Notes under the pieces: model-generated
The model's input: only the letters and a program-made list of their open reading frames with translations
Told to the model about the DNA's origin: nothing
Databases searched by the model: none
Translations under genes and position numbers: made by a program
In this document: piece by piece, positions 3,295 to 6,459 of the stretch
Layout: every line of letters starts with the position of its first letter
How positions within the stretch are numbered: position 1 is the first letter of the stretch
IMG/VR virus record: IMGVR_UViG_2541047901_000004
Coordinates: 1-9,606 of that record
Strand: one strand, 5' to 3'
DNA length: 9,606 nucleotides
Source of the DNA: a virus
Taxonomy: Duplodnaviria; Heunggongvirae; Uroviricota; Caudoviricetes

Positions 3295-5049
3295 ATGAAA
3301 CTGGCACCGAACGTAAAAAAACAGCCTCGCGGAATAAAACACGAACAAACCGAAGTGATCATTTTTGCGGGTAGTGATGCTTGGTCACACGCGAAACAGT
3401 GGCAGGAACACGACGCGCGTACAGCCGGAGATAATGAGCCTCCTGTGTGGCTTGGAGAGCAGCAGCTATCCGAACTGGATAATCTACAGATTGTACCGGA
3501 AGGCCGAACATACGCTCGTATCTACAGAGCCGGACATCTTGCGCCTGTAATGATTAAGGCGATTGGTCAGAATCTGGCTGCGGCAGGCGTACAGGATGCA
3601 AATTTTTACCCTGAGGGAATGCACGGTAAGAAGGTGGAGAACTGGCGCGAATATCTGGCCCGTGAACGCCAGAATCTTTCTGATGGGCTGGTTATTGAGC
3701 TTCCGGTAAAGCAAAAAATGCAGCTTTCGCAGATGGCGGACAGTGAGCGCGCGCAACTGCTTGTCGATCGCTTTGATAGCGTTTGTGTGCATCCGGAAAG
3801 TGAAATCATCCACGTCTGGCGCGGCGGGGTATGGTGTCCGGTCAGCACAATGGAACTGAGCCGCGAAATGGTGGCGATTTATTCAGAACATAAAGCCACT
3901 TTCAGCAAGCGCGTAATCAGTAACGCCATTGAAGCGTTAAAAGTTATTGCCGAACCAATGGGCGAGCCGTCCGGTGATTTGCTGCCGTTCGCTAATGGCG
4001 TGCTTGACCTGAAAACAGGGGAATTTTCCCCGCACTCGCCTGATAACTGGATCACCACACACAACGGCATTGAGTACACGCCGCCAGTACCAGGGGAGAA
4101 TATCCGCGACAACGCGCCAAACTTTCATAAATGGCTTGATCACGCAGCCGGAAAAGACCCGGGCAAGATGATGCGCATATGTGCCGCGCTATACATGATT
4201 ATGGCGAACCGGTACGACTGGCAGATGTTTATTGAGGCCACAGGAGACGGCGGGAGCGGCAAGAGTACATTTACGCACATAGCCAGCCTTCTGGCAGGGA
4301 AACAGAACACAGTAAGCGCTGAGATGACATCGCTTGATGATGCTGGTGGGCGTGCGCAGGTTGTCGGGAGTCGGCTTATCGTCCTGGCAGACCAGCCGAA
4401 ATATACAGGCGAAGGAACGGGCATCAAGAAAATCACGGGCGGCGACCCCGTGGAAATTAACCCGAAATATGAAAAGCGTTTTACGGCGGTAATCAGGGCG
4501 GTGGTGCTGGCAACCAATAACAATCCGATGATATTCACCGAACGGGCCGGAGGTGTGGCACGTCGTCGGGTGATATTCCGGTTCGATAACATCGTAAGCG
4601 AGGCAGAAAAAGACAGGGAGCTACCGGAAAAGATCGCGGCTGAAATCCCTGTCATTATCCGCCGCTTGCTGGCGAACTTTGCCGACCCTGAAAAGGCACG
4701 GGCTTTACTCATTGAACAGCGTGACGGTGATGAAGCACTGGCAATAAAGCAACAGACGGATCCGGTTATTGAGTTTTGCCAGTTCCTGAATTTTCTGGAG
4801 GAAGCACGCGGCCTGATGATGGGCGGCGGTGGCGATTCAGTGAAGTACACGACCAGAAACAGCCTTTACCGCGTCTATCTGGCGTTTATGGCGTACGCAG
4901 GCAGGAGCAAACCGCTAAACGTAAATGACTTTGGCAAGGCTATGAAGCCAGCTGCGAAAGTTTACGGACATGAATATATTACGCGGAAAGTTAAGGGAGT
5001 AACGCAGACTAACGCAATAACAACAGACGAGTGCGACGCGTTTTTATAA
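3295..5049 (+). CDS. Replication initiator: D5_N-like region plus SF3 (P4 alpha / D5-type) helicase with C-terminal domain
   Basis: 584 aa, GGGGGG SD 6 nt upstream. Walker A GDGGSGKST (about 4243-4269), Walker B RLIVLADQ, motif C VVLATNNNP. Upstream LPFANGVLDLKTGEFSPH resembles the D5_N region of phage/plasmid primase-helicases. The N-terminal ~230 aa could not be assigned to a primase fold by eye. Confidence 0.85.
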   Translation: MKLAPNVKKQPRGIKHEQTEVIIFAGSDAWSHAKQWQEHDARTAGDNEPPVWLGEQQLSELDNLQIVPEGRTYARIYRAGHLAPVMIKAIGQNLAAAGVQDANFYPEGMHGKKVENWREYLARERQNLSDGLVIELPVKQKMQLSQMADSERAQLLVDRFDSVCVHPESEIIHVWRGGVWCPVSTMELSREMVAIYSEHKATFSKRVISNAIEALKVIAEPMGEPSGDLLPFANGVLDLKTGEFSPHSPDNWITTHNGIEYTPPVPGENIRDNAPNFHKWLDHAAGKDPGKMMRICAALYMIMANRYDWQMFIEATGDGGSGKSTFTHIASLLAGKQNTVSAEMTSLDDAGGRAQVVGSRLIVLADQPKYTGEGTGIKKITGGDPVEINPKYEKRFTAVIRAVVLATNNNPMIFTERAGGVARRRVIFRFDNIVSEAEKDRELPEKIAAEIPVIIRRLLANFADPEKARALLIEQRDGDEALAIKQQTDPVIEFCQFLNFLEEARGLMMGGGGDSVKYTTRNSLYRVYLAFMAYAGRSKPLNVNDFGKAMKPAAKVYGHEYITRKVKGVTQTNAITTDECDAFL

Positions 5050-5063
5050 TTTTTTGTAATTGC

Positions 5064-5289
5064 TGTCTACCCTGTCTACCTGAGTAAATAAAAATACATT
5101 TAATTCAGTGCATTAAGTTAGGTAGATAGCCTTTTTTTACTGTCTACCCACTATCTCCCCTCTCTACCTGATTTTACCTGAATCAGACAGGGAGGTAGAC
5201 ACGGGGTAGATAGTGGATAAAAGCACTCTACCCCGCTGAAAGCCGCGCCATTACTGGCATGAGGGCCACTAAGGTAGATAAGGTAGACA
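5064..5289. repeat. Iteron cluster, putative origin of replication
   Basis: Octamer GGTAGAYA and its complement TGTCTACC at 5064, 5073, 5141 (TGTCTACC) and 5121, 5194, 5205, 5273, 5282 (GGTAGAYA), plus degenerate copies near 5151, 5162 and 5226. Opposite orientations flank an AT-rich core (5081-5120). Sits immediately 3' of the helicase gene. Confidence 0.65.
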
Positions 5290-5337
5290 AGGGGAGGCAC
5301 AACTCAAAACTTTTTAAACGAGGGGGTAAAAATAAAT

Positions 5338-5616
5338 ATGCACACTTCAGGGAAATTTAATAAATCACTCAAAAAACGCAGAGACAGAACAGAACCGAAA
5401 TATCGCGCGTTAGACATGACAGAGCACGCTTTAAAGGTGGCAATCAGAACGATAGACCGCCACGCGGGGGAAGGATACGCGAAAGCACATCCCGAACTGA
5501 TAAGCGCATTCATGACCACGACGGCGGCAAATTTTGCCACGCTGACAGAGCGGGAGATTGCCGAAGCGGAACAGGTAACAACCATCAACGTTAAAACCGG
5601 AGAGCAGACAGCATGA
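5338..5616 (+). CDS. Hypothetical protein, translationally coupled to the SSB-like gene
   Basis: 92-aa ORF with GAGGGGG SD. Its stop overlaps the next start in ATGA (5613-5616). No motif recognised. Confidence 0.5.
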   Translation: MHTSGKFNKSLKKRRDRTEPKYRALDMTEHALKVAIRTIDRHAGEGYAKAHPELISAFMTTTAANFATLTEREIAEAEQVTTINVKTGEQTA

Positions 5617-6035
5617 CAGCACAGATAGCGGCTTACGGGCGGCTGGTGGCTGACCCGCAGTTAAAGACCACCAGCAAAGGGACACAAATGGCGATGGCGA
5701 GTATGGCGGTTCCCCTGCCGTGCAGCCAGGCAGATGACGGAACGGCGACAATGTGGTTATCCGTTCTGGCGTTTGGTAGGCAGGCCGACGCACTGGCAAA
5801 ACACCACAAAGGCGAACTGGTGAGCGTGGCGGGTAACATGCAGGTAAGCCAGTGGACAGGCCAGAACGGCGAAATACGGCAGGGCTGGCAGGTTATCGCA
5901 GACAGTGTAATCAGTGCCAGAACGGCGCGACCAGGTGGTAAAAAAGGCCAACAGGGGCAGGCCACTGACGCACTGAACAGGGCAAAACAACAGGCGGGAA
6001 ATGATGATCCGTACGGGGATAACATACCGTTTTAA
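5613..6035 (+). CDS. ssb: Short single-stranded-DNA-binding (SSB)-like protein with conserved C-terminal IPF tip
   Basis: 140 aa. The OB-fold region aligns by eye to E. coli SSB (GRLVADPQLK...TQMAMASMAV ; WLSVLAFGRQADALAKHHKGELVSVAGNMQVSQWTGQNGEIRQGWQVIADSV). The C-terminus DDPYGDNIPF resembles the SSB tail DFDDDIPF. The Gly/Gln-rich linker is much shorter than in host SSB. Confidence 0.8.
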   Translation: MTAQIAAYGRLVADPQLKTTSKGTQMAMASMAVPLPCSQADDGTATMWLSVLAFGRQADALAKHHKGELVSVAGNMQVSQWTGQNGEIRQGWQVIADSVISARTARPGGKKGQQGQATDALNRAKQQAGNDDPYGDNIPF

Positions 6036-6051
6036 GCAACGAGTAACAGAG

Positions 6052-6073
6052 GCCGGAGCAATCCGGCTTTTTT
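6052..6073 (+). terminator. Intrinsic terminator after the replication/SSB operon
   Basis: Stem GCCGGA / TCCGGC with loop GCAA, followed by TTTTTT (6068-6073), 17 nt after the ssb stop. Confidence 0.6.
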
Positions 6074-6074
6074 A

Positions 6075-6144
6075 CGGGTCCTCCCGGTGTAGTGACCTGC
6101 CACGGGGCGGGAGCGGCGCGGAAAAAGGCTGGTTTTTGCATTTT
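6075..6144 (+). repeat. Copy 1 of a 70-bp conserved element (putative late-operon regulatory site)
   Basis: CGGGTCCTCCCGGTGTAGTGACCTGCCACGGGGCGGGAGCGGCGCGGAAAAAGGCTGGTTTTTGCATTTT. Matches 8611-8680 at 68 of 70 positions. Contains an imperfect dyad (CTCCCG ... CGGGAG). Confidence 0.8.
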
Positions 6145-6191
6145 CATGGCGGCGGCAGCATGTGTGATAATTTATTGATAATTAAAAATTA

Positions 6192-6292
6192 TTTCTGTTT
6201 TCACCTGTACAATATTTTTTTCTCCCTGTCATTAGATCAGTTTGCAATTAATTGAAATATATAAATAAATCTGTTTTTCACCTGCCAGGTGG
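6192..6292. promoter_or_regulatory. Leader region with direct repeats TCTGTTTT(T)CACCTG and a CACCTG-C-CAGGTG palindrome
   Basis: TCTGTTTTCACCTG at 6194-6207 and TCTGTTTTTCACCTG at 6270-6284. Perfect inverted repeat CACCTGcCAGGTG at 6279-6291. Extended -10-like TGTGATAAT at 6163-6171 lies upstream. Confidence 0.3.
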
Positions 6293-6334
6293 AGTTGCCT
6301 GTGTCAAAACGTGTTCAGATGGCGGGATATTTAT

Positions 6335-6357
6335 GCCGGATTTTCTCCGGCTTTTTT
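6335..6357 (+). terminator. Intrinsic terminator/attenuator inside the leader of the capsid operon
   Basis: Stem GCCGGA / TCCGGC (same arms as the 6052 terminator) with loop TTTTC, followed by TTTTTT (6352-6357). Lies about 100 nt upstream of the next start codon. Confidence 0.45.
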
Positions 6358-6459
6358 GTGTCTGAATCTTATTAATCTATTTTTATGATAGAAATATGTT
6401 TATCTACCACTTTTATCGATCAATAATGTGCACAGTTTAGTCAGTAAGAGGAAGTTACT

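Follow-up and report, generated by a model that had tools for sequence, protein, structure and literature searches.

Directly downstream of a gene for a 584-aa helicase-like protein, the 9,606-bp stretch of DNA analyzed in this work (the window) carries a dense cluster of short repeats at positions 5064-5289. The question raised by this locus is what the cluster does and which protein reads it. In the first-pass annotation, the cluster was taken for an iteron-type origin of replication placed immediately after the initiator gene of a satellite or PICI, the repeats were proposed to be recognized by the C-terminal domain of the encoded protein, and a second cis-acting site was suggested, speculatively, at 6194-6284.

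Several E. coli chromosomes contain the window sequence at 100% identity, and in strain IrN the element is located between cspD/yljB and clpS. Its genes, mostly on the plus strand, are arranged in the following order: an integrase (int, 1-1239), an HTH regulator, an Icd-like protein, a DUF4222 protein, the 584-aa ‘DNA primase family protein’, a small ORF, SSB, a ClpP-protease/major-capsid fusion, and a DUF1441 protein; the genes that follow the repeat cluster occupy 5338-6035. Both the gene context (int, an alpA-type HTH regulator, rep, and morphogenesis/packaging genes in a common direction) and the cspD-clpS attachment site are those of a PICI. Supplementary Table 1 of Fillol-Salom et al. 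2018 (PMC6092414) places a 10.5-kb PICI, EcCIIHE3034, at cspD-clpS. On gene content and attachment site, we assign the window to the E. coli PICIs of EcCIIHE3034 type.

The octamer GGTAGAYA occurs nine times in the 9606-bp window, with eight of these copies within 5064-5289, while 0.23 copies are expected by chance in the whole window and none of 200 dinucleotide-preserving shuffles reached nine. A one-mismatch search added the octamers at 5152-5159 (GGGAGATA) and 5161-5168 (GGTAGAGA), and a further degenerate copy (GGTAGAGT) is found at 5225-5232. The cluster thus comprises 11 iterons in both orientations, eight exact and three degenerate (iterons 5, 6, and 9 in the window copy), in good agreement with the ‘about 10’ copies in 226 bp counted previously, and their extended consensus is R-GGTAGAYA-G. 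The sites are arranged as follows, a top-strand GGTAGAYA being written ‘+’: - - (40 bp, 80% A+T) + (12) - - - (25) + + (12) - (40 bp, 40% A+T) + +. The features of the locus are as follows.

3295-5049, plus strand: rep (pri-rep), encoding a 584-aa P4-alpha-family SF3 helicase with a C-terminal origin-binding domain (Pfam, TIGR01613, alignments).
4756-5031, plus strand: predicted winged-helix origin-binding domain, Rep residues 488-579 (phmmer match to PDB 1KA8, E 7e-7).
4924-4935, plus strand: codons N544-D545-F546-G547, at the predicted start of the third helix of the binding domain (covariation; low-confidence model).
5064-5289, no strand: probable origin of replication with 11 predicted Rep-binding iterons (repeat enrichment; 94% identity to the tested EcCICFT073 ori region).
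5064-5080, minus strand: iterons 1 and 2, left outer pair (5064-5071 and 5073-5080, both GGTAGACA on the minus strand; exact match).
5081-5120, no strand: spacer of 40 bp, 80% A+T, predicted DNA-unwinding element (composition, duplex stability, conservation).
5121-5128, plus strand: iteron 3 (GGTAGATA; exact match).
5141-5168, minus strand: iterons 4-6 (5141-5148, GGTAGACA; 5152-5159, GGGAGATA; 5161-5168, GGTAGAGA).
5194-5212, plus strand: iterons 7 and 8 (5194-5201, GGTAGACA; 5205-5212, GGTAGATA; exact match).
5225-5232, minus strand: iteron 9 (GGTAGAGT, degenerate; position kept in homologues).
5236-5258, no strand: conserved non-iteron block CTGAAAGCCGCGCCATTACTGGC, within the right 40-bp spacer (locus comparison).
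5273-5289, plus strand: iterons 10 and 11, right outer pair (5273-5280, GGTAGATA; 5282-5289, GGTAGACA).
5306-5315, no strand: A4-C-T5 tract (AAAACTTTTT), just beyond the last iteron pair (cross-genus comparison).

The first iteron lies 15 bp 3' of the stop codon of rep, and the cluster takes up all of the space that separates rep from the following operon genes. Most iterons are paired, 9 or 11 bp apart from start to start. Both strands are used, and iterons 10 and 11 are inverted relative to iterons 1 and 2, whose position is kept in all homologues compared, so that the outer pairs build a 22-nt inverted repeat (5064-5085 with 5268-5289). The A+T-rich core described by the first-pass annotation is real, but it is not central: the spacer 5081-5120 separates iteron 2 from iteron 3, close to the left edge of the cluster, and the equivalent right-hand 40-bp spacer is just 40% A+T. 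The duplex free energy of the 30-bp stretch 5076-5105 is -30.6 kcal/mol, as compared with a window mean of -40.8 (sd 3.6); the spacer is therefore unstable, yet not the least stable part of the window, the duplex at 6167-6276 being weaker. All alleles examined, those of Serratia, Morganella, and Xenorhabdus among them, have an A+T-rich spacer of 36-40 bp at the same position.

The protein encoded upstream of the cluster (hereafter Rep) matches the Pfam families D5_N, DUF5906, and Pox_D5, and scores 108.9 against a cutoff of 108.7 with TIGR01613, ‘primase, P4 family’. Its residues 143-579 align with residues 326-762 of P4 alpha at 41% identity over 438 aa (E 2e-114), and the structure matched by its C-terminal part, PDB 1KA8, is the origin-binding domain of P4 alpha. 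A single-sequence AlphaFold (AF2) model of the C-terminal domain, which is poor (pLDDT 58.6) and was used just to place helices, has a helix at 543-557. The N-terminal domain of Rep (residues 1-142; window 3295-3720) is the part that varies most among alleles (48-90% identity), and it is common to DUF927-type and other initiators, from Tenebrionibacter and E. albertii, at 40-46% identity. No significant alignment was obtained between Rep 1-142 and alpha 1-325, and Pfam and NCBIfam searches returned nothing in Rep residues 1-152; the P4 alpha primase domain is absent, and the ‘primase’ label of Rep is therefore unproven. Rep 195-432 also matches PDB 7OLA, deposited as ‘DNA primase’, a SaPI primase-helicase.

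In the Gram-positive PICIs SaPIbov1 and SaPI1, the ori is reportedly located directly 3' of the rep helicase gene (Ubeda et al. 2007, 2012, as summarized in PMC6092414), and SaPI origins are said to consist of two sets of short iterons flanking an A+T-rich region, with island-specific Rep/iteron pairs. The placement and the iteron/A+T-rich layout of the window cluster are the same. The SaPI iterons, in contrast, have no sequence similarity to those of the window, and the DNA-binding domain of the window Rep is of the P4-alpha winged-helix type, unlike that of SaPI.

A much closer counterpart is provided by EcCICFT073 (NC_004431, 1377749-1389210). Its Rep, also of 584 aa, is identical to the window Rep at 556 of 584 positions (95%), and the 288-bp intergenic regions that follow rep are identical at 272 positions (94%), with 16 substitutions. 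The iterons of EcCICFT073 have the same GGTAGAYA sequence and occupy the same 11 positions around the same A+T-rich spacer, and a small gene and then SSB follow downstream as in the window. The differences include iteron 5, which is the degenerate GGGAGATA in the window and GGTAGATA in EcCICFT073, the attachment site (cspD-clpS in the window, as in EcCIIHE3034, versus ycfD-phoQ), and the morphogenesis module, which in the window consists of the ClpP-protease/capsid fusion and the DUF1441 protein. As described by Fillol-Salom et al. 2018 (ISME J, PMC6092414), the region after rep in EcCICFT073 is the PICI ori and was tested on plasmids (pJP2027-2029): a thermosensitive plasmid with pri and ori was maintained at the restrictive temperature, the Delta-pri plasmid was lost, and the Delta-ori plasmid gave significantly fewer colonies, their number being reduced, not abolished. 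The same paper ascribes to Pri-Rep a distant homology to alpha and distinguishes four alleles in E. coli PICIs.

The window shares with the EcCICFT073 pri-rep-ori replicon an ori position directly 3' of rep and two iteron sets flanking an A+T-rich region, along with homology to the tested sequences themselves. Of 5426 complete E. coli genomes, 565 contain the intergenic region, at identities as low as ~68%; among the matches listed, it always follows a primase-family gene, and the repeats were retained at this position in the homologous islands at every locus examined. From these comparisons, we consider it very probable that an E. coli PICI of the EcCICFT073/EcCIIHE3034 replicon type has its vegetative origin of replication at 5064-5289, as the first-pass annotation had proposed in more general terms. 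Since the 94%-identical EcCICFT073 origin was published and tested in 2018, the class of this origin, its position, and its iteron/A+T-rich layout are already known from a near-identical island.

Whether Rep reads these iterons was addressed by comparing rep alleles with the repeats that follow them. Two iteron classes were distinguished among 12 related E. coli and Shigella loci: class A, with the iteron GGTAGAYA (the window, CFT073, IHE3034, L002, L004, L014, and Shigella L017), and class B, with the iteron GGTAGAGG (L003 and L005-L008). All iteron sites change together between the classes, and in divergent copies the positions of the repeats are kept while the surrounding sequence drifts. 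The alignment of the 12 Reps has 186 variable columns, and N544A and G547S alone segregate with the iteron class; D545E accompanies the class change in most cases. Mean Rep identity is 89.9% within classes and 90.0% between them, so the split is not a matter of how closely the Reps are related overall. Different iteron classes go with Rep pairs that otherwise share 98% identity: the Reps of CFT073 (A) and L003 (B) differ at 10 residues and those of IHE3034 (A) and L005 (B) at 14, both sets including N544A, D545E, and G547S. N544 and G547, together with D545, are thus candidate determinants of iteron specificity, with the qualification that in 12 related sequences shared ancestry of the 544-547 segment and the adjacent ori is not fully separable from functional coupling. 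The covariation of iterons with this domain across alleles, combined with the match of residues 488-579 to 1KA8, supports the earlier suggestion that the C-terminal domain reads the repeats; on these comparative data, we infer that Rep binds the iterons.

More distant rep alleles are followed by iterons of other sequences. A profile search of genome contigs with the Rep alignment yielded six loci, too few for cross-genus statistics. The following alleles were compared.

E. coli 1223 (L013; 3736-5840): 605-aa Rep, 48% identical to P4 alpha; iteron after rep TGTTCACC, exact P4 type I.
E. coli AR_0011 (L012; 3709-6210): DUF927 initiator; iteron after rep TAACCCGCA.
Serratia (L018): D5/P4-type Rep; iteron after rep ACTGTTCAC.
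Morganella and Xenorhabdus (L019, L020): D5/P4-type Rep; iteron after rep GTGTTCAT.
Tenebrionibacter (L021): DUF927-like initiator; iteron after rep TAACCCAC.
E. albertii (L022): other Rep type; iteron after rep CTTGTCCCA.

The iteron layout of the E. coli 1223 locus is the same as in the window and is essentially constant among all D5/P4-type alleles. In the islands of E. coli 1223 and AR_0011, the integrase, SSB, cos, and capsid genes are ~94% identical to those of the window. The rep-ori cassette is, to judge from this mosaic, exchanged as a unit between otherwise near-identical islands.

The relation of the origin to that of P4 requires separate consideration. The P4 record gives the type I iteron TGTTCACC, as stated in the first-pass annotation, with the variants TGTTCACA, TATTCACC, and TCTTCACC. 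The window octamer (TGTCTACC) agrees with TGTTCACC at six of eight positions, and in both replicons the octamers have the form TGTnnACC and occur in both orientations. The helicase and origin-binding domains of alpha are homologous to those of Rep, which is in this respect an alpha-type SF3 initiator. The differences are equally clear: the window uses TGTCTACC, not TGTTCACC; the N-terminal primase region of alpha (1-325) is missing from Rep and replaced by an unrelated domain of ~140 aa; P4 has separate ori and crr, whereas the window has a single compact cluster; and no type II repeats are present. The exact P4 octamer is, nevertheless, used by another rep allele on the same island backbone, that of E. 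coli 1223.

The layouts can also be superimposed. The P4 ori, + + + (14) - (37 bp, 78% A+T) + +, contains a module, + + (+) (12-14) - (37-40) + +, that is colinear with the right half of the PICI ori, and the sub-module - (37-40) + + followed by an A/T tract recurs in each P4 crr repeat and, on the other strand, at the left end of the PICI ori. An A-tract/T-tract follows the last iteron pair in E. coli classes A and B, in Xenorhabdus and Morganella, and, as AAAAGTTTT, in Serratia; both P4 crr repeats have a matching tract (A8CT6 and A8T6). The PICI ori looks like two inverted copies of a module that P4 has singly at ori and twice, directly repeated, at crr.

This likeness also suggests another reading, in which Rep binds the cluster as a cis-acting enhancer of the P4 crr kind, while replication starts from an origin located at some other place on the island. 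The element directly 3' of alpha in P4 is crr, the ori being 4.5 kb away, and the module of an iteron, a spacer of ~37-40 bp, an iteron pair, and an A/T tract is common to P4 crr, P4 ori, and both ends of the cluster. However, the right half of the cluster is colinear with the P4 ori itself, and no second iteron cluster was found in the island or its flanks; outside the cluster GGTAGAYA occurs just once, at 6401-6408, and islands whose Rep types are unrelated have this copy too. Moreover, rep and the post-rep region of EcCICFT073 alone gave plasmid maintenance (PMC6092414). An enhancer acting on a distant origin is therefore a very unlikely explanation of the cluster.

The repeats could alternatively be mainly transcription operators, serving Rep autoregulation or termination, or a promoter for the genes at 5338-6035. 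Plasmid iteron-binding initiators often autoregulate, the cluster occupies the entire gap between rep and the next operon genes, and two further elements of the region, the conserved 5236-5258 block and the A4CT5 tract, are unexplained. Every class A and class B locus has the block CTGAAAGCCGCGCCATTACTGGC, even where the spacer sequence next to it has diverged; the P4-type allele is without it, and the right spacer there is A+T-rich. On the other side, a scan of 4900-6700 for promoters and terminators showed nothing convincing inside the ori: 5050-5337 contains neither a terminator nor a sigma-70-like promoter facing the downstream genes, and the single weak promoter-like match in this interval is on the minus strand. 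The arrangement itself, with 11 sites whose sets are inverted about a spacer rich in A+T, is that of an origin, and the functional test in PMC6092414 concerns replication. A regulatory role would add to the origin role rather than replace it. We regard operators as the main function of the repeats as highly improbable.

Several other signals were sought in the same region. A DnaA-box-like sequence, TTATCCACT, is located at 5212-5220 on the minus strand between iterons 8 and 9 (8/9 match). It is found in CFT073-like class A copies and is absent from L002, L004, and class B; a DnaA box as a conserved component of the origin was rejected, as it occurs in a subset of class A loci only. A scan of the ori with the IHF consensus found no site inside, and an Rfam scan of 4800-6700 gave only sub-threshold miRNA-hairpin matches, caused by the inverted iterons.

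Repeats devoted to packaging or recombination (a pac/cos accessory site or integrase arm sites), of which satellites have examples and for which the lambda-like cos ~0.8 kb away might speak, can be set aside almost entirely. The module swaps speak against this reading, since a different rep allele brings different iterons with it and leaves the integrase, cos, and capsid/DUF1441 modules much as they were; in addition, a separate cosQ/cosN-like sequence is present at ~6070-6110, and the integrase gene and the island ends are kilobases off.

With the cluster read as the replication origin, a plausible mechanism can be outlined. Induction of the island would lead to production of the 584-aa Rep, whose C-terminal winged-helix domain would bind the 11 RGGTAGAYAG iterons; their pairing at 9 or 11 bp suggests dimeric or cooperative binding. 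The inverted arrangement of the iteron sets on either side of the 40-bp, 80% A+T spacer could allow Rep hexamers to assemble at 5081-5120, open the duplex, and load onto it. Copying of the excised circle would then fall to host replication proteins, and the SSB gene of the island is located just downstream of the origin. The melting site, the stoichiometry, and the manner of priming are presumptive only; our literature search found no Gram-negative PICI with a mapped start point of synthesis.

The second site suggested by the first-pass annotation fared differently. Two related motifs are indeed present at 6194-6284, as copies of TCTGTTT(T)TCACCTG (TCTGTTTTCACCTG at 6194-6207 and TCTGTTTTTCACCTG at 6270-6284, the second with one extra T). 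They match the window iteron at just five of eight positions, and a pattern search for the motif recovered one of the two copies and a chance-level match at 5168. A role as a crr-like second Rep site was rejected, since the segment is nearly invariant whatever the rep allele: class A, P4-type, and DUF927 islands have almost the same sequence at 6036-6665. This near-invariance across initiator types assigns 6036-6665, on comparative grounds, to the morphogenesis/packaging module and not to the replicon. The sequence at ~6070-6110, just upstream of the two motifs, resembles lambda cosQ/cosN (30 of 41 bases identical, including ACGGGGCGG). Binding of terminase at a cosB-like site, or late regulation, is more likely for 6194-6284 than binding of Rep.

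The lambda-like cosQ/cosN segment (TTTTTTRCGGGTCCTCCCGGTGTAGTGACCTGCCACGGGGCGGGAGCG...) is present in two direct copies, 6067-6144 and 8603-8680, identical at 74 of 77 positions and 2.5 kb apart, one upstream of the capsid-fusion operon and the other upstream of the DUF1441 gene; published PICI cos sites are located upstream of rpp. The interval 6160-6360 is A+T-rich, forms the least stable duplex in the window, and is conserved regardless of the rep allele. Besides the two TCTGTTT(T)TCACCTG motifs, it includes an IHF consensus on the minus strand (6168-6180), a palindrome (CACCTGCCAGGTG, 6278-6290), and, at 6335-6351, a hairpin that resembles a terminator and has a T-run after it; no Rfam family matches the interval. 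This interval could be a cosB-like terminase site or could give a small transcript or leader.

Some observations concern the remaining genes of the island. RefSeq annotates a 57-aa ORF at 6400-6573 on the minus strand, overlapping an ORF at 6460-6666 on the plus strand. In CFT073 and IHE3034, a 68-aa plus-strand gene is annotated instead, with the same length and position as 6460-6666 and abutting the start of the capsid gene; the plus-strand reading looks the more plausible one. The single additional GGTAGATA in this segment, at 6401-6408, is kept whichever rep type is present and is therefore probably a chance match. Downstream, 6666-8579 encodes the ClpP-protease/major-capsid fusion and 8750-9322 the DUF1441 (small-terminase-like) protein, whereas EcCICFT073 and EcCIIHE3034 have a plain capsid, a decoration protein, and Rpp or TerS at these positions. 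This variant of the morphogenesis module is also distinct from that of the 15-kb capsid-forming PICIs; identity as a cf-PICI was not adopted, the island being ~10.5 kb and without the full head and packaging gene set of EcCIEDL933.

The locus illustrates that a satellite origin is recognizable from sequence alone, and it adds no new kind of element. What the comparison may add is, first, a testable specificity code that relates two or three residues of the Rep binding domain to iteron positions 7-8, and second, the swapping of rep-ori cassettes, one of them with the exact P4 iteron, as units between islands. Neither a specificity switch nor a module shared by P4 and PICIs was found stated in the literature that we searched, where Fig. 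2a of PMC6092414, with its iteron list for several islands, may already show both classes. The GGTAGAYA and GGTAGAGG classes may be interconvertible by as little as N544A, D545E, and G547S. The combined proposal, that at least two iteron specificity classes exist, that N544A/D545E/G547S are possibly enough to switch between them, and that the ori consists of two inverted P4-like modules, is one to which we assign an even chance. If true, such a minimal natural switch of specificity could let co-resident islands avoid cross-talk between their origins, and the specificity code together with cassette exchange would matter for replicon compatibility where satellites are co-resident and for the question of how P4 and the PICIs are related in evolution.
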